Part shown: piece after piece, positions 4,522 to 61,909 of the stretch | How positions within the stretch are numbered: the first letter of the stretch is position 1 | Layout of the letters: every line of letters begins with the position of its first letter | Assembly (NCBI GenBank): GCA_964651395.1 | Contig: CAZYXZ010000005.1 | Coordinates: 5,007 to 69,006, forward strand | Source: an uncultured Frankiaceae bacterium | GTDB taxonomy: Bacteria > Actinomycetota > Actinomycetes > BP-191 | Direction of reading: 5' to 3' | Length of the DNA: 64,000 bases | Position numbers and translations under genes: made by a program | The notes under the pieces: model-generated | Seen by the model: only the letters and a program-made list of their open reading frames with translations | Database searches by the model: none | What the model was told of the DNA's origin: nothing

Positions 4522-6575
4522 GTATCCGGTCGCGACTGCGCGAGAGCCTGCACGGGACGTCCGGCTTCCCGGCCTTCGTCCTGTCGACGTACAACGGCAT
4601 CGACGAGTTCGACATGGCCGCGACGGCGATTCTCGCGCCGGAGATCGTTGCCGAGTTCCACTCCGATGCCGCCACGTACGGCTACCTGATCATCCCGCAG
4701 GTGCTCGTCGGGTTCCTCCTGCCCATCCTCATCGGCTACGCGGCCGACCGGCGCAGCCGGGTCAAGATGACCGTCGTCGGCGGCACGCTGTGGGTCGCGT
4801 CGGCGATCCTCAGCGCGGTCAGCCCCACCATCGCCGCGTTCGCTCTCTTCCGGTTGTTCTCCGTCGTGGCGAAGGGCTTCAGCCCGGTCCATCTGAGCCT
4901 GCTGGCCGACTACTACCCCACGAAGGTCCGTGGTTTCGCCTACGCGAGCTACAACGCGGCGAACCGCGTCGGGCACGCGCTCGGCCTGCTCGTGGTGGGC
5001 TTCCTCGGACAGTGGTTCGGCTGGCGGTGGGCGCTCATCGCCGTCGCGGTCCCCGGTGCCGTCTTCACTCTCCTCGCACTCCGGCTCAAGGAGCCGGTAC
5101 GCGGCCAGATCGAGGCGGACGAGGCCGGCGCCGACGAGGTCGCGGTGGCCAGCCCGATCGGCCCGATCCGGGCCGCGCGGTTGCTGCTGAAGACGCCGTC
5201 GTTCAAGCGCCTGTGCTGGGCAACCGCGTGGGTCTTCGCGGCCATCGCAGGCAGCGGCGTCGCGCTGAGCTTCTACTTCAGCAGCGTCTTCAACGTGTCC
5301 CCGTCGATGCGCGGCGTCTTCCAGTTCCTGACCGTCCCTGCCAGCGTGGGCACGCTTTACCTCGGCGGCGCGGTCGGCCAGCGGCTGCTCGCCCGGGGCC
5401 GGGCGGACCTCGTGGCCAAGCTGAGCGCTGTCGTCAACGTCCTCGGCGGAGTCTGCTTCGCGCTCCTCGCCTTCGCGCCCAACGTCGCGTCGGCCGTCCT
5501 CGTCATGGTGCTGCTCCAGGCAGTGCTGGCGCTGCCAGGCGTGGCACTGCAGCTGCTGGTCGCGCAGATCGTGCCGCCGCACGTCCGTTCGCAGGCGTTC
5601 GGGCTCTTCGGGTTCTTCCTCTACGTGCTCACGCCGGTCGCGCTCATCTTCGGCCTGCCGCTCGGTGACCGGGTCGGCTTCCGCTACGCCGTCCTGGTCT
5701 TCTCACCCTGCCTGCTCGTGGCGGCGTACTTCACCTTCCGCGCCGGGCAGAGCATCCGCGGAGACATCGCGCGGACGCAGGGTGTCGCCCTCGCGGCCGC
5801 GGAGGCGCGGCAGCGCAAGGCGGCAGGTGAGAAGGGCGCGGTGCTCGTGGCCCGGGGCATCGACGCCGGCTACGGCACGGTGCAGATCCTCTTCAACGTC
5901 GACATGTACGTCGCGGACGGCGAGATCGTGGCGCTGCTCGGAACCAATGGCGCCGGGAAGTCGACGATGCTCAAGGCGATCAGCGGCCTGCTCACACCGA
6001 CGTCGGGCGGCATCTTCCTCGACGGCGAGGACGTGACCGGCCTGGACGCCGAGGTGACGGCTTCCCGCGGGATCATCCAGGTGCCAGGTGGACGCGGCGT
6101 GTTCCCCGGTCTGAGCGTCCGGCGCAACCTCGACCTCGGCACCTACATGTACTGGGACGACAAGGACTACTGCGAGGCGGCGCGCGCCGACGTGATCGAG
6201 CTCTTCCCGCGCCTCGGCGAGCGGCTGGACCAGCTGGCCGGCACGCTCTCCGGTGGGGAGCAGCAGATGCTCACCCTGGCGCAAGCGTTCATGAGCAAGC
6301 CGCGCATCATGATGATCGACGAGCTCTCCCTCGGGCTCGCACCGGTCGTCGTCCAGGAGCTGCTCGTGGCGGTGCGCGAGATGAACGCGAGGGGCACGTC
6401 GCTGATCCTCGTCGAGCAGTCGGTGAACATCGCCATGACACTGGCGCATCGCGCGTACTTCATGGAGAAGGGCGAGGTGCGCTTCGAGGGGGCGACCTCG
6501 GAGCTGATGGGCCGCGACGACCTGCTCCGCTCGATCTTCCTCGAAGGGGCCACCTCGAAGATGGTGAAGACATGA
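4518..6575 (+). CDS. MFS-type membrane domain fused to a LivF-like ABC ATP-binding domain
   Basis: The N-terminal roughly 430 aa is polytopic with MFS motif A (GYAADRRSR). The C-terminal roughly 240 aa has Walker A GTNGAGKST, signature LSGGEQQ and Walker B MMIDE. Translationally coupled to both neighbours. Confidence 0.7.
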   Translation: MSIRSRLRESLHGTSGFPAFVLSTYNGIDEFDMAATAILAPEIVAEFHSDAATYGYLIIPQVLVGFLLPILIGYAADRRSRVKMTVVGGTLWVASAILSAVSPTIAAFALFRLFSVVAKGFSPVHLSLLADYYPTKVRGFAYASYNAANRVGHALGLLVVGFLGQWFGWRWALIAVAVPGAVFTLLALRLKEPVRGQIEADEAGADEVAVASPIGPIRAARLLLKTPSFKRLCWATAWVFAAIAGSGVALSFYFSSVFNVSPSMRGVFQFLTVPASVGTLYLGGAVGQRLLARGRADLVAKLSAVVNVLGGVCFALLAFAPNVASAVLVMVLLQAVLALPGVALQLLVAQIVPPHVRSQAFGLFGFFLYVLTPVALIFGLPLGDRVGFRYAVLVFSPCLLVAAYFTFRAGQSIRGDIARTQGVALAAAEARQRKAAGEKGAVLVARGIDAGYGTVQILFNVDMYVADGEIVALLGTNGAGKSTMLKAISGLLTPTSGGIFLDGEDVTGLDAEVTASRGIIQVPGGRGVFPGLSVRRNLDLGTYMYWDDKDYCEAARADVIELFPRLGERLDQLAGTLSGGEQQMLTLAQAFMSKPRIMMIDELSLGLAPVVVQELLVAVREMNARGTSLILVEQSVNIAMTLAHRAYFMEKGEVRFEGATSELMGRDDLLRSIFLEGATSKMVKT

Positions 6576-54039: not shown

Positions 54040-54078
54040 ACCCCGGTCTTCAGGCTCTTGAAGACCGGGGTTCTGCTG
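54040..54078. terminator. Perfect 16-bp stem / 6-nt loop hairpin (AGAACCCCGGTCTTCA-ggctct-TGAAGACCGGGGTTCT)
   Basis: Read directly from the sequence. It lies just downstream of the SRPBCC gene and at the boundary of the integrative element. No U-tract follows. Confidence 0.45.
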
Positions 54079-54092
54079 TGTGGGGCGATGAG

Positions 54093-54139
54093 CGCGCTCG
54101 GAGGGACTCGAACCCCCAACCTTCTGATCCGTAGGTCCG
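54093..54139 (-). other. 3'-terminal tRNA fragment (T-arm GGGGG-TTCGAGT-CCCTC plus acceptor 3' strand CGAGCGC-G); putative att-site remnant
   Basis: The minus-strand reading gives a canonical T-stem-loop and a 7-nt acceptor 3' strand plus discriminator. No matching 5' acceptor strand or D-arm exists upstream, so this is not a complete tRNA. Confidence 0.4.
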
Positions 54140-54853: not shown

Positions 54854-55231
54854 TCAGACAGATCCTTTCCGCGCTGCCCGTGCGTGCTTTACCGTGGCCC
54901 GGATCACTTCCTCAAGGTAGGCGACATCGCGCTTGTCGAGGTCTTGGCGCGCCCGCAGCAGCGGGGCGAGCTGGGTCACGAGGTCAGGTTCAGGCTGGGC
55001 CGCCCGATCGGACTCGATGTCGATCATGAAGCTCTCGGCCGGCATGTTCAGCCAGCGAACCAGAGTCGCGAAACCGTCGGCGTCCGGACGCAAGTCATTG
55101 CCTAGACGCGACAGCAGCGACGGGCTCACGCCGATGTCCTTTGCAAGTTGTCGCCACGACAAGCCACGTGTCGTCCGTTCCGCATCGAGCGCGGCGTATA
55201 GGCCCTGCACGTCGATCTTCGTGGTTGCCAT
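54854..55231 (-). CDS. XRE-family helix-turn-helix transcriptional regulator
   Basis: LSWRQLAKDIGVSPSLLSRLGN HTH. Start at the internal ATG (55231); the preceding part of the ORF is Cys/Arg-rich. Confidence 0.7.
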   Translation of the reverse strand: MATTKIDVQGLYAALDAERTTRGLSWRQLAKDIGVSPSLLSRLGNDLRPDADGFATLVRWLNMPAESFMIDIESDRAAQPEPDLVTQLAPLLRARQDLDKRDVAYLEEVIRATVKHARAARKGSV

Positions 55232-55313
55232 GAGTCCCCTCGGCGGCCGACCGAGAGTGTCGCACTTCCGGGCCACTGCTTGAAAGTCGACACGCACTGT
55301 TCTACAGTCGGCG

Positions 55314-55337
55314 CAATGCGTCACAACCGACGCATTG
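55314..55337. promoter_or_regulatory. 9-bp inverted repeat CAATGCGTC-n6-GACGCATTG between the XRE gene and the Ubl-E1 cassette
   Basis: Read directly from the sequence. Lies in the divergent intergenic region 55232..55362. Confidence 0.4.
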
Positions 55338-55362: not shown

Positions 55363-55623
55363 GTGACGACCGCAGCCCAGAGCGATCACAAGACGAAGGT
55401 AGTCACGATCATCGTCAACACCAGGCCTCACGAGTGGCTGGAGAAGGACATCACCTTCGAGCAGGCAGTCGAGCTCGCGTTTCCGGGCCAGCCGTACGAC
55501 CCCGCCGGAACGACGGTCGAATACAGCCGGGGCCACGGTCCGGACAAGTCGCTGCGGCCCGGAGAGCGTGTGCATGTAAAGGACGGCATGGTCTTCGATG
55601 TCGAAGCCGCCAACCGGTCCTGA
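55363..55623 (+). CDS. Multiubiquitin-domain (beta-grasp, Ubl) protein
   Basis: AGGAG RBS 5 nt before the GTG. KVVTIIVNTRPHEW...ITFEQAVELAF...VHVKDGMVFDV matches the recalled consensus of the prokaryotic Multiubiquitin family (I-VNG--YEV---ITG-QIL-LAG...L--G--F-TVP). Confidence 0.55.
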   Translation: MTTAAQSDHKTKVVTIIVNTRPHEWLEKDITFEQAVELAFPGQPYDPAGTTVEYSRGHGPDKSLRPGERVHVKDGMVFDVEAANRS

Positions 55624-56758
55624 AGACTCGATCTCCAGGCTGTACTCAGACGGGTACGACGTTCTCCTCGAGAACGGTCACCTGAAGGTCCGCGTCCCCT
55701 ACCTGTCGCCGAGCGGACCCCGTGGCGACGGGCGCCTGGTGCTCCCCGTCAACGACACCGATGGTGTCCTGAATGATGCCCTCAGCGACCACACCATCTG
55801 GTTCTCCGGCGAGGAGCCGCGGGACGAACGTGGCGCACCGCTTGGTGGCGCGAACCAGCGCGACCTCGGCAATGGCGACACTGCCAACTTCATGCTGTCC
55901 TTCAAGCCGCCAAGCGGCAGTTACGCCAGCCTGTACGAGAAGGTCCGCGGGTACGCACGCATCCTGAGTACCCCGGCGGTACAACTGGATCCCGTTCTCT
56001 CGGCCACACCAGGCGCGGCTTTTCAAGTGGTGGAAGACGGATTGCCGTTCGTGTACCGCGACACAAACACCACGCGAGCCGGCCTCACGGAGCTAAGCAA
56101 TCTCTTTCGCGGCCATACCGTTGCGATCGTCGGGGTCGGAGGTACCGGGAGTTACATTCTTGATCAGGTTGCGAAGACGTGGGTCGATCGAATCATCCTC
56201 ATCGACGGCGACGTCTTCGAAAACCACAACGCGTTCCGAGCGCCGGGTGCTGCCTCACACGAAGCGCTTCAGAAGCGCCAGAGCAAGGCCGAGTACTTCG
56301 CGGCCGAGTACTCCCGTATGCACACCGGTATCACTCCGCACGCGGAACATCTGACGGCCGATAACCTGGACCTGTTGGCGGACGCAACGTTCGTCTTCCT
56401 CGCGGCGGCCGATGCGAAGGCGCGCCCTGACATCATGGTGTGGCTCCGGGAGCGCAGCATCCCATTCATCGACGTGGGAATGGGTGTGAGCATCGGCGAC
56501 AGTGGGCTCACCGGGCTGCTGAAGGTCACCTCGTACCCGATTGGCGCGGACGCGCTGCCACTGCAGAGTGCGGACACCGCGCCTGGTGAGGATGACTACG
56601 GCAGCAACATCCAAGTTGCCGACCTGAATGCCCTCAACGCGGTGCTGGCGGTCATCCAGTGGAAGCGTCAGCTCGGCTACTTCGCTGCCCATTCGTTGAC
56701 GACCGAAACCGTTTACAAGCTCTACCTCAACGAGCTGCGCAACGGCGACACCGAATGA
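55598..56758 (+). CDS. ThiF/MoeB-family E1-like adenylyltransferase with about 170-aa N-terminal extension; contains no cysteine
   Basis: IVGVGGTGSYILDQVAKTWVDRIILIDGDVFENHNAFR is the ThiF/E1 nucleotide-binding motif. The 386-aa translation has zero Cys residues. Confidence 0.75.
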   Translation: MSKPPTGPEDSISRLYSDGYDVLLENGHLKVRVPYLSPSGPRGDGRLVLPVNDTDGVLNDALSDHTIWFSGEEPRDERGAPLGGANQRDLGNGDTANFMLSFKPPSGSYASLYEKVRGYARILSTPAVQLDPVLSATPGAAFQVVEDGLPFVYRDTNTTRAGLTELSNLFRGHTVAIVGVGGTGSYILDQVAKTWVDRIILIDGDVFENHNAFRAPGAASHEALQKRQSKAEYFAAEYSRMHTGITPHAEHLTADNLDLLADATFVFLAAADAKARPDIMVWLRERSIPFIDVGMGVSIGDSGLTGLLKVTSYPIGADALPLQSADTAPGEDDYGSNIQVADLNALNAVLAVIQWKRQLGYFAAHSLTTETVYKLYLNELRNGDTE

Positions 56759-57153
56759 GTCGCGCGGAGCGCTTTGTAGCGCAGATTGTAGACGCTTTCC
56801 CGTCGCCACTGCAGCCGGGCGTGTTGTACGTCTCCACCGCGTACTCGACCGCGGCACACATCTGTCCTTGCGGGTGCGGAAGTGAGGTGGTCACCAAGCT
56901 CTCGCCAGCCCGCTGGAAGGTGATCTTCGACGGCGAGGTTTCGCTAAGCCCGTCCGTCGCAAGTACCGGACTCCCCTGCAACTCGCACTACTTCATCACC
57001 CGTGGTGCAGTGGATTGGCGTCGGAAGCTCGACTCGAGTGAGGCTGCGCTAACCCAAGCCGTCGATCGTGACGCACTTCATCAGCATCGGGTCCCATCGA
57101 AGAGCAACTGGTTCGCCAGACTGCGGCAAGGGATCGGACGCTTGTTCACGTAG
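56755..57153 (+). CDS. Small CPCGCG-motif protein (DUF6527-like; candidate non-canonical E2-like partner)
   Basis: ATGA overlap with the E1-like gene. 132 aa with AHICPCGCGSEVVT plus a fourth Cys (GLPCNSH). Confidence 0.5.
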   Translation: MSRAERFVAQIVDAFPSPLQPGVLYVSTAYSTAAHICPCGCGSEVVTKLSPARWKVIFDGEVSLSPSVASTGLPCNSHYFITRGAVDWRRKLDSSEAALTQAVDRDALHQHRVPSKSNWFARLRQGIGRLFT

Positions 57154-57168: not shown

Positions 57169-58611
57169 CTAGTCACGGCCGGTCAATCGGTTGGACGTCG
57201 CCGGCTCAACATCTTGCTGTTGCTCGCCGTGACCTGGCGGCGACTCGGCGTTCTGTGTCTCTTCGAGCGCCCTGGCGTACGCGTCCATGGCCGCAGCGGA
57301 GGCGGCGGCTTGATCAAGGTTGGGGTCGAGGTAGCCGCGTGTGGTCCGGTCGTCTGAGTGGCCGAGGTACTCGCGGGCGAACTCGATCGGCAAGCCGGAC
57401 CGCACGATGATCGTCGCGCCAGTGTGACGAAGTCGATGCGGCGTGGCGCGAGCGACGCCGACGCTCGTAGCCACTCGTTGCCAAGCAGCACGCAAGTTGG
57501 CGTCGTCGAGTTGGGTTCCGATGTCGGTCGTGAAGACCAGGTCCTGGTCGGCCCACCGCAGCGGAGATCCGACAGCCGCCATGTGCTCGTTGAATGCCCG
57601 GATCTGCTCTTGCTGACGGGCGTGATGCTCAATCAGTTCGCGATGAAGGACCTCGGGCAGCTTCAACAGGCGAAGCTTGTGGCCCTTCGAGTCGCTCACA
57701 ACGCGCTCGGTCCGCAACGGTGAGCCGTCGCGTCGCTTCTGCCGCCGCACGTTGGCCCCGAAGTAGACCTCGCCGTTCGCCAGGTTGATGCGCGACCATC
57801 GCAGCTCGAGGATCTCGCCGATGCGAGCGGCGAGCATGAAGAGGGCGAGCCAGAGCGAACGGCGCGCGTCCGCGGCCATCGCCGGCCACAGCAATTTCAT
57901 CTCTTCCTTGGTGTGGCCGGTCACACGGGTGGCTGGCGCTCGCTTCCCGCCGGGGAGTTTGCAGTCCATCGCCGGGTTGTAGGGGATGCGGTTGTCGCGC
58001 TTGGCGTCCTGCAGCGATCGCCGGAGCGCCGCAAGCATCCCCTTCAGCGAGGAATATGAGCGCGTCTTCGTCGACGGGTTCTCGATCCGCCGCCGGGCGT
58101 TCGCCTGCCGCTTGGCGATCTCGTTCTTCGACCGATGACCCTTGCCTTCGCCGGTGCGTCGCGGTCCTCCCCGAACGACGACGTCGCGTGACTTCTTCGC
58201 GAGCCACGCCTGGATCAGTGGCGTCGTGAGCTCCTCGAGTTTCCACCCACCGAGTTCCGGCACGACGTGGTTCTCCCAGTCGGCCTCGTAGCCGTCGCGA
58301 GTGGAGGACTCGATGGCGCCGATCGTCACCTCGTCGTCCAGGATGGCGAACCAGCGAACGCCCCACTCGGTAATCGTCATCGACTCACTCGTGGTGGCGC
58401 CCTGCATGCGCTGCGCAATCCGCAGTTCGATGAGCTTGTCCGTGACTTCCTGCTTGGTCTTGCCGTACACCGTTGCGCGCCGCCGTACCCCATCTGGGCC
58501 CCGTACGCCGGTCAGCTGGCCGATCCACCTTCCGTCCTGGCGCTTGTGGATGGAGCCTTCGCCGTAGCCGCGCCTCTTCTTCGGCTTCTTCTCGTCCGCC
58601 TGCTCGGCCAT
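57169..58611 (-). CDS. int: Tyrosine-type site-specific integrase
   Basis: C-terminal catalytic region (RLRHTGATIIVRSG...LGHSDDRTTRGY has the R..HxxR..Y pattern). Start at Met106 of the ORF-track ORF (MAEQADEKKPKKRRGYGEGSI). Confidence 0.85.
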   Translation of the reverse strand: MAEQADEKKPKKRRGYGEGSIHKRQDGRWIGQLTGVRGPDGVRRRATVYGKTKQEVTDKLIELRIAQRMQGATTSESMTITEWGVRWFAILDDEVTIGAIESSTRDGYEADWENHVVPELGGWKLEELTTPLIQAWLAKKSRDVVVRGGPRRTGEGKGHRSKNEIAKRQANARRRIENPSTKTRSYSSLKGMLAALRRSLQDAKRDNRIPYNPAMDCKLPGGKRAPATRVTGHTKEEMKLLWPAMAADARRSLWLALFMLAARIGEILELRWSRINLANGEVYFGANVRRQKRRDGSPLRTERVVSDSKGHKLRLLKLPEVLHRELIEHHARQQEQIRAFNEHMAAVGSPLRWADQDLVFTTDIGTQLDDANLRAAWQRVATSVGVARATPHRLRHTGATIIVRSGLPIEFAREYLGHSDDRTTRGYLDPNLDQAAASAAAMDAYARALEETQNAESPPGHGEQQQDVEPATSNRLTGRD

Positions 58612-59415: not shown

Positions 59416-60576
59416 GTGGACGCGCGACGTGCACCCCGACCGAGCTCAGCCGGGATCCGCCAGCTGACGACCGTTGTCGACGTCGAACCGCCGCTAGTGG
59501 GCGTGCACGACGGCACTGCCGGGTGGTGGCCGCTTCGAGTGCTAGCGGAGTCCCGCTTGGTGACAGCTGGGCTGCGAGACGCGCTCGGCCAGGCCATGGA
59601 CCAGCGAGTGGAGGGCGGGCGCGCCGCAGTCGCCTGGACGATCGTCCAACTGGAACGTCTCGGCTGGGTCCGCCCGCTCGACCTGCCACCGCAGAAGCCC
59701 GTGGAGCGTTTCGCACTGCGTCAGGACGCCGAGCGCGTCGCTCGGTCGATGGGCGGGCTGCGCGGGGGGAAAGCAGCCGTGATTGCGGCGACTCTGATCG
59801 ACAAGCCGAAGGGCCTGACCGCAGACGACTTGCGCATCGCGGTCAACGGCGGCGACCCACAGAAGGTGCCCGCGTCCGAAGACCGGGCGTACTACTCGGC
59901 GCTCGCGGTCCTTCAGGCCAAGGGCGCGCTCACCAAGACGAGCTCCGATCGCGTGCCCAAGGTCCTGTGGCTCACACCCTTCGGTGCGGGGTGCTTGTCG
60001 TTGATGGCACGGAGCGGGCGGTGGGGTCTGCCGCACGGCGCGCGGGCCGTCACGATCAGCGCACACCGACGGCATGCTGTCCTCATCGCTGACGCACTAG
60101 CTGCGCTGCTGAAAGTATTTCCCGAGGCCGTCGACACCGTCGTCTGCGACCGAGTCCGCCGGTCCAAGCCCGTCGTCGACATGCCTAACGCGCCGACCAG
60201 CGGCCGTATGCGGCCCGATGTGTACGCGCCGGTGACCTTGGCGGACGGGTCGCGATGCCTGCTCGTCATCGAGTGGGAAACGAAGGGACGGGAGAGCGTC
60301 GAACGGCACCTGATCAACAGCACGAACCTGCTGCATTCCGAGGTACTCCGTGAAGACTCCCCCTACTACCGCATGGTCACGGTCGTCGCGACTGCCCGGA
60401 ACGGTGGGACGCGAGACGGACTTGTGAGCGACACCCTCGCGAGTATGGACCGGGCCGGGTACGGGCAGCTGACGCGATCGCTCGATGTCCGGGTGGCTAC
60501 CCGCGCTGCGCTGACGCGGGTGCTGCAGGACATCAAGGCTGAGGGGAGCTATTGGCGTGAAAGGAGGCTGTCCTGA
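59416..60576 (+). CDS. Hypothetical protein, possibly replication/relaxation-related (element-borne)
   Basis: AAGGAGA RBS 5 nt before the GTG. 386 aa. No firm family recognised. Confidence 0.4.
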   Translation: MDARRAPRPSSAGIRQLTTVVDVEPPLVGVHDGTAGWWPLRVLAESRLVTAGLRDALGQAMDQRVEGGRAAVAWTIVQLERLGWVRPLDLPPQKPVERFALRQDAERVARSMGGLRGGKAAVIAATLIDKPKGLTADDLRIAVNGGDPQKVPASEDRAYYSALAVLQAKGALTKTSSDRVPKVLWLTPFGAGCLSLMARSGRWGLPHGARAVTISAHRRHAVLIADALAALLKVFPEAVDTVVCDRVRRSKPVVDMPNAPTSGRMRPDVYAPVTLADGSRCLLVIEWETKGRESVERHLINSTNLLHSEVLREDSPYYRMVTVVATARNGGTRDGLVSDTLASMDRAGYGQLTRSLDVRVATRAALTRVLQDIKAEGSYWRERRLS

Positions 60577-60813: not shown

Positions 60814-61635
60814 CTAGCTGCTCGACCCGGGACTGGGCACGGCTGTCACCCGGAGACAGTTCGGAGTTGCCGACGCCGAGGGGAACGGAGAGGCGGACGG
60901 CGAGGGGGACAGTCGGCGCGAGTCGAAGTCGGCCTCTGGGACCCGGACGTCTTCAGGAAGGTTGAAGTAGCCACCGGCATACGCCCGACAACTCGACTGG
61001 TCGTCAGGACCCGGACCGTAGTGATGCTGTGAGGAGTACTTCCAGAACTTGAAGACGTCGGTCTTGTCGTTGTACTCAGCTGTGAGACCGAGAGTGCGGT
61101 CGAAGCCGACCTCCCAGAGGCGGCCGTCGGAGCGGTCGCGTAGGAAGTAGTGCATGAGGCCGCGCCAAGTGATCTTCAGGTAGCCCTCGTCATCGACGGC
61201 GAGGGCGAACGTGCTGTGCCGAACCTCGACCGGGCGGAAGTACTCGAACCGGGCCGGCTGGAACCGCACGAGGAAGTTCAACGCCATCAGCGGGCGTTCT
61301 CGCATCTGCCTGACCAGGTCGGTTACGACGTAGGGCGAAGTGGGATCAGCTCCGTTCAGGACCGTGGCCGCGTCGAAGTGACTCGCCTGGACGAAGTCGC
61401 GGAAGAGGTTGAGGACGCGCGCCACGACGTCGGCCGGAAAGTCCTCGACCGCGGCAGGGGTCGGGAGCCCGAGGTCCGGCGGCGCGGCCAGCTCGGCTGC
61501 GCTGTACGACCGGGTGGGCGATGGTGGCGCAGACGGTTCGGCAGCCGGCTTGCCGGAGTCGCGCCCGCAGGCGACCACGCCCATGAGGGCCATCAGAACG
61601 ACGATGCTCCAGCCTCGATCGCGCCGGCTTCCCAT
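60814..61635 (-). CDS. Putative lipoprotein
   Basis: Start at the internal ATG 61635. Signal peptide with lipobox MALMGVVACG. The upstream 219 aa of the ORF is Arg/Pro-rich. Confidence 0.5.
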   Translation of the reverse strand: MGSRRDRGWSIVVLMALMGVVACGRDSGKPAAEPSAPPSPTRSYSAAELAAPPDLGLPTPAAVEDFPADVVARVLNLFRDFVQASHFDAATVLNGADPTSPYVVTDLVRQMRERPLMALNFLVRFQPARFEYFRPVEVRHSTFALAVDDEGYLKITWRGLMHYFLRDRSDGRLWEVGFDRTLGLTAEYNDKTDVFKFWKYSSQHHYGPGPDDQSSCRAYAGGYFNLPEDVRVPEADFDSRRLSPSPSASPFPSASATPNCLRVTAVPSPGSSS

Positions 61636-61696
61636 GCCGCCCCCGATACTTATCAGTCTGTAGACCGAAGAGTAGCGGCCCCGGGACGTTGAGTGC

Positions 61697-61909
61697 GTGG
61701 AAGGCGCACTGCAGAAGACGCTGGGGCGGAACCTGCGCCGCTGGCGGGAGCAGCGCGGTTTATCCCAAGAGGCACTCGCCGACCGCCTCGGGCTCCACCG
61801 CACGTACATCGGCGGAATCGAGCGCGGCGAGCGCAACCTGACGCTGCGCTCTGTGGAGCGCCTCGCAGCGGATCTCAAAGTCCAACCCCTGGATCTTCTG
61901 CAGGAATAG
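61697..61909 (+). CDS. XRE-family (Cro/C1-type) HTH regulator
   Basis: 70 aa. [38 protein letters not shown]. Confidence 0.65.

Follow-up and report, generated by a model that had tools for sequence, protein, structure and literature searches.

The 64,000-nt stretch of contig CAZYXZ010000005.1 analysed here (the window; GenBank assembly GCA_964651395.1, an uncultured Frankiaceae bacterium) encodes an E1-like enzyme of the ThiF type without a single cysteine, and the locus to which its gene belongs is very probably a new actinobacterial, cysteine-free member of the Type II Bub (6E.2) operons on a small integrated mobile element, a system of a known kind and not a new mechanism. Three consecutive and overlapping genes encode, in order, a Multi_ubiq protein, a DUF6791+ThiF fusion, and a DUF6527 protein (Table 1), with no JAB domain detected in the block by Pfam. 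Type II Bub operons (earlier ‘6E.2’ or ‘DUF6527’) are composed of BubA, BubBD, and BubE, typically without a JAB peptidase (Ye, Gong, Chambers & Corbett, bioRxiv 10.1101/2024.11.21.623953), and since the gene set matches this published definition, the three products were identified as BubA, a ubiquitin-like protein (Ubl), BubBD, an E2-E1 fusion, and BubE.

Predicted catalytic residues and identification of BubBD

For the Bub family it has been reported that the E1 lacks a catalytic Cys and possesses an invariant Tyr in the crossover loop (Y370 in Citrobacter BubCD, Y342 in E. coli BubBD), that the E2 possesses an invariant Ser (S106 in E. coli BubBD), accompanied by a Lys and a His in Type II, and that the Y342F, S106A, and R219A substitutions abolished the BubA conjugate in vitro (bioRxiv 10.1101/2024.11.21.623953). 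In the window BubBD, Pfam matched DUF6791 at residues 12–156 (PF20590, E = 3.1e-25) and ThiF at residues 162–295 (PF00899, E = 6e-13). The nucleotide-binding motif corresponds to G179–G184 (GVGGTG), with an intact Gly-rich loop (G179/G181/G182/G184), and the first 170 residues are without a GxGxxG motif. Using a four-way alignment of the window BubBD, the E. coli ZDHYS365 BubBD (machine-read from Table S2 of the preprint), and the members from Runella and P. aeruginosa, it was possible to assign an equivalent to each of the published catalytic positions (Table 1), and the crossover-loop column is Tyr in both the Runella and P. aeruginosa members.

Residue conservation was counted in an alignment of 143 full-length diverse members of the family. 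Y334 and R214 are present in all 143, followed by H65 (n = 142), D292 (n = 140), S101 (n = 138), and K103 (n = 122). The S101 column tolerates solely Ser or Cys, as is expected of a nucleophile that carries an acyl group. An earlier reading of the sequence alone had proposed, as one of two options, that conjugation proceeds without an E1 thioester; this option agrees with the Bub family, in which conjugation has been shown to run through Tyr and Ser, with Y334 and S101 as the equivalents here.

A scan of genome contigs returned five loci. The same trio of genes, with equal overlaps, is present on Runella slithyformis pRUNSL03, on a P. aeruginosa plasmid, and in two actinobacterial metagenome-assembled genomes (MAGs; L003 and L004), with the operon and its regulators conserved in both of the MAGs. 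The P. aeruginosa plasmid operon is also adjoined by ImmA/IrrE and helix-turn-helix (HTH) genes, and Runella is among the BubBD members in the published alignments (bioRxiv 10.1101/2024.11.21.623953). Identities of the window BubBD to the Runella and P. aeruginosa members were 34–41% (tblastn).

Several points weigh against identifying the locus as Type II Bub. At the Tyr column, the machine-read E. coli sequence has a V, and its numbering is off by 1–2; because it contains reading errors, the equivalence of Y334 and Y342 was judged from the invariance of the column and from the two plasmid members, which were taken from DNA records. The NCBIfam PRK06153 score (305.8) is below the curated equivalog cut-off (352). 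Evidence for the Type II systems consists of AlphaFold3 models and one in vitro assay, mutation of K108 was without effect, and no phage protection was found for any Bub operon (bioRxiv 10.1101/2024.11.21.623953). Bub biochemistry is known only from the E. coli and Citrobacter homologues, neither of them actinobacterial. A literature search for follow-up work returned nothing beyond the two 2024 preprints.

Table 1. Features of the Bub locus and its surroundings, in window coordinates, with the counterparts of the BubBD residues in the alignment to E. coli ZDHYS365 BubBD.
Feature	Position	Strand	Basis	Counterpart in E. coli BubBD; motif
bubBD, E2-E1 fusion, 386 residues, no Cys	55598..56758	+	Pfam, NCBIfam, homologue alignment, AlphaFold2 model	
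E2-like domain, residues 1 to ~156	55598..56065	+	Pfam DUF6791	
H65 codon	55790-55792	+	codon checked	conserved His; DH
S101 codon, predicted Ubl~Ser oxyester nucleophile	55898-55900	+	codon checked	S106; LSFKPPSGSY vs FSNKPPSGSY
K103 codon	55904-55906	+	codon checked	K108; LSFKPPSGSY vs FSNKPPSGSY
E1 adenylation domain (ThiF), residues ~160-386	56075..56755	+	Pfam ThiF	
R214 codon	56237-56239	+	E1 domain	R219; HNAFRAPGAAS
D292 codon	56471-56473	+	E1 domain	conserved Asp; IDVGMG
Y334 codon, crossover loop, predicted Ubl~Tyr oxyester nucleophile	56597-56599	+	E1 domain	Y342; EDDYGSNIQ
bubA, Ubl, single Multi_ubiq (beta-grasp) domain, 86 residues, GTG start	55363..55623	+	Pfam PF14452, E = 2.3e-16	
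bubE, DUF6527, 132 residues, predicted BubA-specific deconjugating peptidase	56755..57153	+	Pfam PF20137, E = 1.3e-21	
CapP-like metallopeptidase (Peptidase_M78 / ImmA-IrrE), 192 residues	54273..54851	-	PF06114, E = 3.3e-14; PADLOC capP, E = 3.7e-12	
CapH-like HTH regulator	54854..55231	-	Pfam HTH_31/HTH_3; weak PADLOC capH match	
Promoter-like site TTGAAA-17-TACAGT	55280-55308	+	consensus match; sole such site in the capH-bubA intergenic region	
Perfect 9-bp inverted repeat CAATGCGTC-N6-GACGCATTG	55314-55337	+	just downstream of the promoter-like site	
tRNA 3'-part-like fragment, ~55 nt, T-arm GGGGGTTCGAGTCCCTC and acceptor strand	54080..54134	-	by eye	
Tyrosine recombinase (phage-type integrase), likely start MAEQADEKK... 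(inferred)	57169..58611	-	PF00589, E = 2.2e-18	
HTH_17 protein, excisionase-like, 64 residues	58611..58805	-	PF12728, E = 2.5e-14	

Cysteine distribution and alternative readings

The absence of Cys, which the sequence-only reading had pointed out, was confirmed: translation of the ATG-started open reading frame (ORF) gives 386 residues with a Cys count of zero, and as an identical 386-residue sequence is present in a public protein collection (P0001), the Cys-free translation cannot be put down to a misreading of the window. The possibility of a mis-called start concealing an upstream Cys-bearing domain was ruled out, as homologues begin at the identical position: more than 140 homologues from many phyla share the start site, with a common ‘MS’ beginning (consensus MSxxxI...), the NCBIfam PRK06153 models cover the protein from residue 1, and the DNA 5' of bubBD is taken up by the gene for the Ubl, read in another frame. 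Nothing in bubBD points to a frameshift. Across the 12 high-confidence ORFs of the window, Cys accounts for 0.75% of residues, so that the probability of zero Cys in 386 residues is ~0.054, and the absence is, on its own, only mildly unusual in this high-GC genome. It matters because E1/ThiF enzymes normally have a catalytic Cys, zinc-binding CxxC pairs, or both; a protein devoid of Cys has neither, as the same reading had concluded.

The distribution of Cys was determined for the closest homologues (n = 120; 63–74% identity to the window BubBD) and for the wider family, for which 1.84 billion cluster representatives were searched exhaustively with HMMER, giving 384 proteins at E ≤ 1e-30. Half of the closest homologues (60 of 120) are Cys-free, with proteins from Mycobacterium, Nocardioides, and Janibacter among this closest set, compared to three of the 143 diverse members, for which the median is 3 Cys. 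Such a proportion among close relatives indicates a stable clade trait, and on these sequence comparisons the total loss of Cys appears to be a trait of an actinobacterial subclade and not of the family as a whole. No conserved Cys column was present in the E1 crossover loop among the 143 homologues. Two single Cys are half-conserved, one in the ‘P-C’ of the E2 domain (87 of 143 members, 61%) and one in the strand before the ThiF Asp (68 of 143 members), and both are replaced here, by R75 (55820-55822) and A269, respectively, in support of the published view that catalysis does without Cys.

At the E2 nucleophile column, 138 members have Ser and five have Cys (P0135, P0137, P0144, P0146, and P0256). 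The Lys at position +2 is missing in four of the five Cys-bearing members (Met in three, His in one), as opposed to its presence in 121 of the 138 Ser-bearing members (Fisher p = 0.0016, uncorrected for phylogeny), while all five retain the crossover-loop Tyr. This pattern suggests that the E2 step has occasionally gone back to a thioester and that the Lys is needed just for the Ser chemistry. It is conceivable, though rather doubtful, that Bub enzymes swap between oxyester and thioester chemistry over evolution and that the fully Cys-free form is adaptive, with Ubl conjugation no longer sensitive to thiol oxidation or to thiol-reactive stress. If so, such insensitivity could be relevant to actinobacteria when a phage or mobile element is induced, and the window BubBD would be a clean natural test of strictly Cys-independent Ubl conjugation, with an Ubl that ends in Ser instead of Gly.

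Three other explanations of a Cys-free E1-like protein were weighed. BubBD could be a ThiF-type enzyme that only adenylates, activating a C-terminus for sulfur transfer or peptide modification without an enzyme-bound intermediate, with the N-terminal domain docking the partner; the absence of Cys, the likeness of the E1 domain to MccB/PaaA, ThiF, and TcdA, and the failure of Foldseek and profile searches to confirm an E2 fold for the N-terminal domain are all compatible with this. Such an enzyme would not, however, be expected to retain a crossover-loop Tyr in 143 of 143 members and an N-terminal Ser that is replaced solely by Cys, both of which point to the residues of a covalent relay. Further, there are no sulfurtransferase, rhodanese, thiazole, or molybdopterin genes nearby, BubA, the partner, is a beta-grasp (Multi_ubiq) protein that comes with a peptidase of its own, and the published Tyr-to-Phe and Ser-to-Ala mutants of the E. 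coli homologue abolish conjugation. Adenylation alone, the other option of the sequence-only reading, is thus improbable, given transfer Tyr and Ser residues that are invariant or nearly so. Nor can the transfer chemistry be placed on the partner with the CPCGCG motif, as had been suggested, since this protein is DUF6527/BubE, described in the literature as a Ser-His peptidase whose cysteines make up a C4 zinc site. A role as the ThiF of a sulfur carrier was rejected separately, no partner genes being present.

It is also very unlikely that BubBD is a non-functional leftover, in decay on an old integrated element, with Cys lost under relaxed constraint. A tRNA fragment without a partner repeat or an intact tRNA within the window, together with a truncated BubBD remnant in Kribbella (L006), would fit with decay, but the three ORFs are intact, all catalytic and ligand residues are kept (including the four zinc cysteines of BubE), the 26-nt and 4-nt overlaps are preserved as in distant members, and the Cys-free state is shared with half of the closest 120 homologues. 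The least probable of the explanations, to be given hardly any weight, is a Cap2-like E2-E1 from a signalling system of the CBASS, Pycsar, or MBL kind, with a nucleotide cyclase and not an Ubl as the protein conjugated. While the fusion has the E2-E1 order of Cap2, a capP-like regulator is present, and BubBD is matched by the PADLOC ‘E1-E2’ (Cap2) models and NCBIfam 6A-MBL cap2_3, the Cap2-model matches are weak (E of 1e-8 to 1e-10) and confined to the Rossmann core (residues 154–290), the catalytic cysteines that define Cap2 are absent from BubBD, and the block (54.2–58.9 kb) has no cyclase, effector, or JAB/Cap3 gene, with Ubl and DUF6527 genes in their place. Membership of Cap2/CBASS was ruled out by this gene content, and membership of Bil (BilABCD) by a single adenylation domain fused to an E2-like domain without a JAB peptidase or a Cys domain.

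Predicted structure, mechanism, and known systems

An AlphaFold2 model of BubBD, based on a 149-sequence alignment, had a mean predicted local distance difference test score (pLDDT) of 90.3 and a predicted template modelling score (pTM) of 0.86. Residues 326–331, just N-terminal of Y334, have a low pLDDT, from which the crossover loop is predicted to be flexible. A Foldseek search of the PDB placed the E1 domain of Citrobacter BubCD first (E about 2e-14), followed by MccB/PaaA, UBA5, and ThiF, with structural matches to minimal E1-like enzymes (UBA5 6h78, ThiF 1zud, and others) at E = 1e-9 to 1e-11, and Citrobacter BubCD was also the top PDB match of BubBD by sequence. The isolated N-terminal domain was modelled with a pLDDT of 85.9; in the model, a first helix is followed by an antiparallel beta-sheet, by further strands that end at S101, and by a long helix. 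A degenerate Rossmann domain, for which the sequence-only reading had recommended a structure prediction, was ruled out by the DUF6791 match and by this alpha plus antiparallel beta fold class. That reading was accurate as to the missing Cys and GxGxxG of the N-terminal 170 residues, and its view of them as an inactive adenylation-like or docking domain gave way to that of an E2-like domain with a near-invariant Ser.

Direct searches with the N-terminal domain were less informative. Foldseek of the isolated domain against the PDB gave no significant match, with BubB 9eae_C as the top TM-score (0.40/0.48; E = 0.61), and a profile of 35 N-terminal domain sequences was negative against Citrobacter BubB and against human UBE2D2 (sequence entered by hand) using hhalign, and negative against all PDB sequences. 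The domain was assigned as the BubB E2-like half from its Pfam family, the conserved Ser, His, and Lys, the Ser-to-Cys swaps, and what has been published for the E. coli homologue.

Oxyester chemistry, a peptidase role for BubE, and regulation of the operon were inferred from what has been published on the E. coli and Citrobacter systems, as follows. The ThiF domain (G179–G184, R214, and D292) would bind ATP and the C-terminus of BubA (...NRS) and adenylate its C-terminal carboxylate, after which Y334, in the flexible crossover loop, would attack the adenylate with its hydroxyl group to form a BubA~Tyr oxyester. With the help of H65 and K103, BubA would then move to S101 in the E2-like domain as a BubA~Ser oxyester, with the accepting E2 domain probably on the other subunit of the homodimer (based on published models), and from there to a lysine of a target protein. 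BubE, as a zinc-stabilised Ser67-His78 peptidase, would strip the conjugates, and the divergent CapH/CapP-like pair probably represses the operon until DNA damage or phage infection. As no catalytic step in this scheme needs a Cys, a Cys-free enzyme would be viable.

The locus has in common with the Type II operon of E. coli ZDHYS365 the three genes and their order, the DUF6791+ThiF fusion without a JAB peptidase, the catalytic set of His, Ser-x-Lys, Arg, Asp, and crossover-loop Tyr, the BubE C4 zinc site and Ser-His pair, a BubA that ends in a basic residue and Ser, CapH/CapP-type regulators, and a mobile element at a tRNA site. The two are nonetheless distant, with few invariant columns in the four-way alignment of BubBD. 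BubA has one beta-grasp domain here (86 residues) and three in E. coli (222 residues), BubBD has zero Cys compared to several in the machine-read E. coli sequence, among them the ‘P-C’ Cys (Arg75 here), and the host has a high-GC, actinobacterium-like genome, unlike E. coli ZDHYS365.

With the Type I (6E.1) system of Citrobacter, BubAB/BubCD/BubE (PDB 9ea4, 9ea5, 9ea8, 9eae, and 9eav), the locus shares the crossover-loop Tyr, the E2 Ser, and a DUF6527 peptidase; in Type I, the E1 is fused to a JAB peptidase and the E2 to the Ubl, and the Ubl ends in Gly after cleavage. The Type I E2 Ser is accompanied by His and Asp (WSRHSW), as opposed to the Ser-x-Lys and distant His found here. Cap2 of Type II CBASS resembles BubBD in the E2-E1 order within one polypeptide, the defence and mobile contexts, and possible CapH/CapP regulation, but has a catalytic Cys in both domains, a CD-NTase substrate, and the JAB peptidase Cap3, none of which are found here. 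The Rossmann adenylation core, Gly-rich loop, Arg finger, and Asp are common to UBA5, ThiF/MoeB, MccB, and TcdA; unlike UBA5 (C250), BubBD has a Tyr in the crossover loop in place of a catalytic Cys and an E2-like domain fused at its N-terminus, and unlike ThiF/MoeB it has no structural zinc CxxC pairs.

That an E1 can function without Cys is already explained by the Bub pathways, which conjugate through Tyr and Ser oxyesters. The wholly Cys-free actinobacterial case gives independent support to the view that no Cys is needed, even the half-conserved one of the E2 domain, in a minimal form of the system with an 86-residue, single-domain Ubl ending in Arg-Ser, and adds a further case of a Bub operon on an integrase-bearing element with CapH/CapP-type control. 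A compact Cys-free system could be a convenient biochemical model, as there would be no thiol side chemistry to confound assays. The targets, the biological role, and the reason for oxyesters are questions of the whole family and not particular to this locus.

Partner genes, regulators, and mobile-element context

Ubiquitin-like proteins usually end in Gly or Gly-Gly. BubA has the C-terminus ...ANRS (NRS, 55612-55620), with an RS end in 119 of 120 homologues (P0271–P0390), and a KS end in E. coli, Runella, and P. aeruginosa. In the main text of the preprint, a C-terminal Gly is stated for Type I only (bioRxiv 10.1101/2024.11.21.623953). A C-terminus that is conserved and already exposed fits with adenylation without processing. 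The mechanical bubA ORF begins at a TTG (55345), the 86-residue form matches a database protein (P0271), and BubA has a weak match to PDB 9cd2 (BubA of E. coli ZDHYS365).

The bubBD gene shares 26 nt with bubA and 4 nt (ATGA) with bubE. Within the former overlap (55598-55623), eight bubA sense codons and the stop lie, in a different frame, over the first 8–9 codons of bubBD, so that the overlap couples two conserved sequences, the C-terminal ...[KR]S of the Ubl and the ‘MS’ with which the enzyme begins. An overlap of 26 nt is likewise annotated on the plasmid of Runella, a member of the Bacteroidota (L001, 3001-3026), and the P. aeruginosa plasmid (L002, 3001-3026) and is implied by the tblastn coordinates in the actinobacterial MAGs L003 and L004 (about 6001-6026).

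BubE has been described as a Ser-His peptidase of weak activity, equipped with a C4 zinc site, that strips conjugates (bioRxiv 10.1101/2024.11.21.623953). C37/C39/C41/C75 and S67/H78 of the window BubE (codons checked) correspond to C57/C59/C61/C99 and S92/H102 in Citrobacter, and all six residues are kept in an alignment with BubE of Citrobacter, of E. coli, and of four further loci. On the chromosome of Kribbella sp. CA-245084 (L006, 6034-7028), a 199-residue BubBD remnant that begins inside ThiF, without the Gly-rich loop or the E2 domain, adjoins an intact-looking DUF6527 gene, with no BubA match found at the locus, which looks like a decayed Bub operon.

CapH and CapP adjoin 31% of Bub operons, and the operons that have been studied are in mobile elements at tRNA genes (bioRxiv 10.1101/2024.11.21.623953). 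The CapP-like gene of the window is conserved beside the operon in L003 (80% identity) and L004, and the CapH-like protein has 73% identity in L003. Judged from its sequence, capH probably begins with the ATG at 55231 (MATTKIDV...), which has a GAGGGG ribosome-binding site in front of it; the mechanical ORF extends to 55324. The inverted repeat at 55314-55337 is a candidate operator, ahead of bubA, for the CapH-like repressor.

The G+C content is 0.62–0.66 over 54.0–58.8 kb and about 0.69–0.72 in the flanks, and the Bub block looks like the cargo of a small integrated mobile element. The tRNA-like fragment is probably the remnant of an attachment site at the left edge of this island; no intact tRNA was detected in the 64-kb window by ARAGORN or by Rfam, and no second copy of the fragment or att site was found within it. 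BubBD had no tblastn match in phage genomes. Upstream, a strong hairpin (GAACCCCGGTCTTCA...TGAAGACCGGGGTTC) ends an AHSA1-family gene (54040-54134 region) and is followed by the tRNA-like piece. To the right of the integrase and excisionase genes are two long ORFs without a Pfam match, at 59446-60576 (+) and 60814-61650 (-), and an HTH_3 (XRE) gene at 61697-61909.

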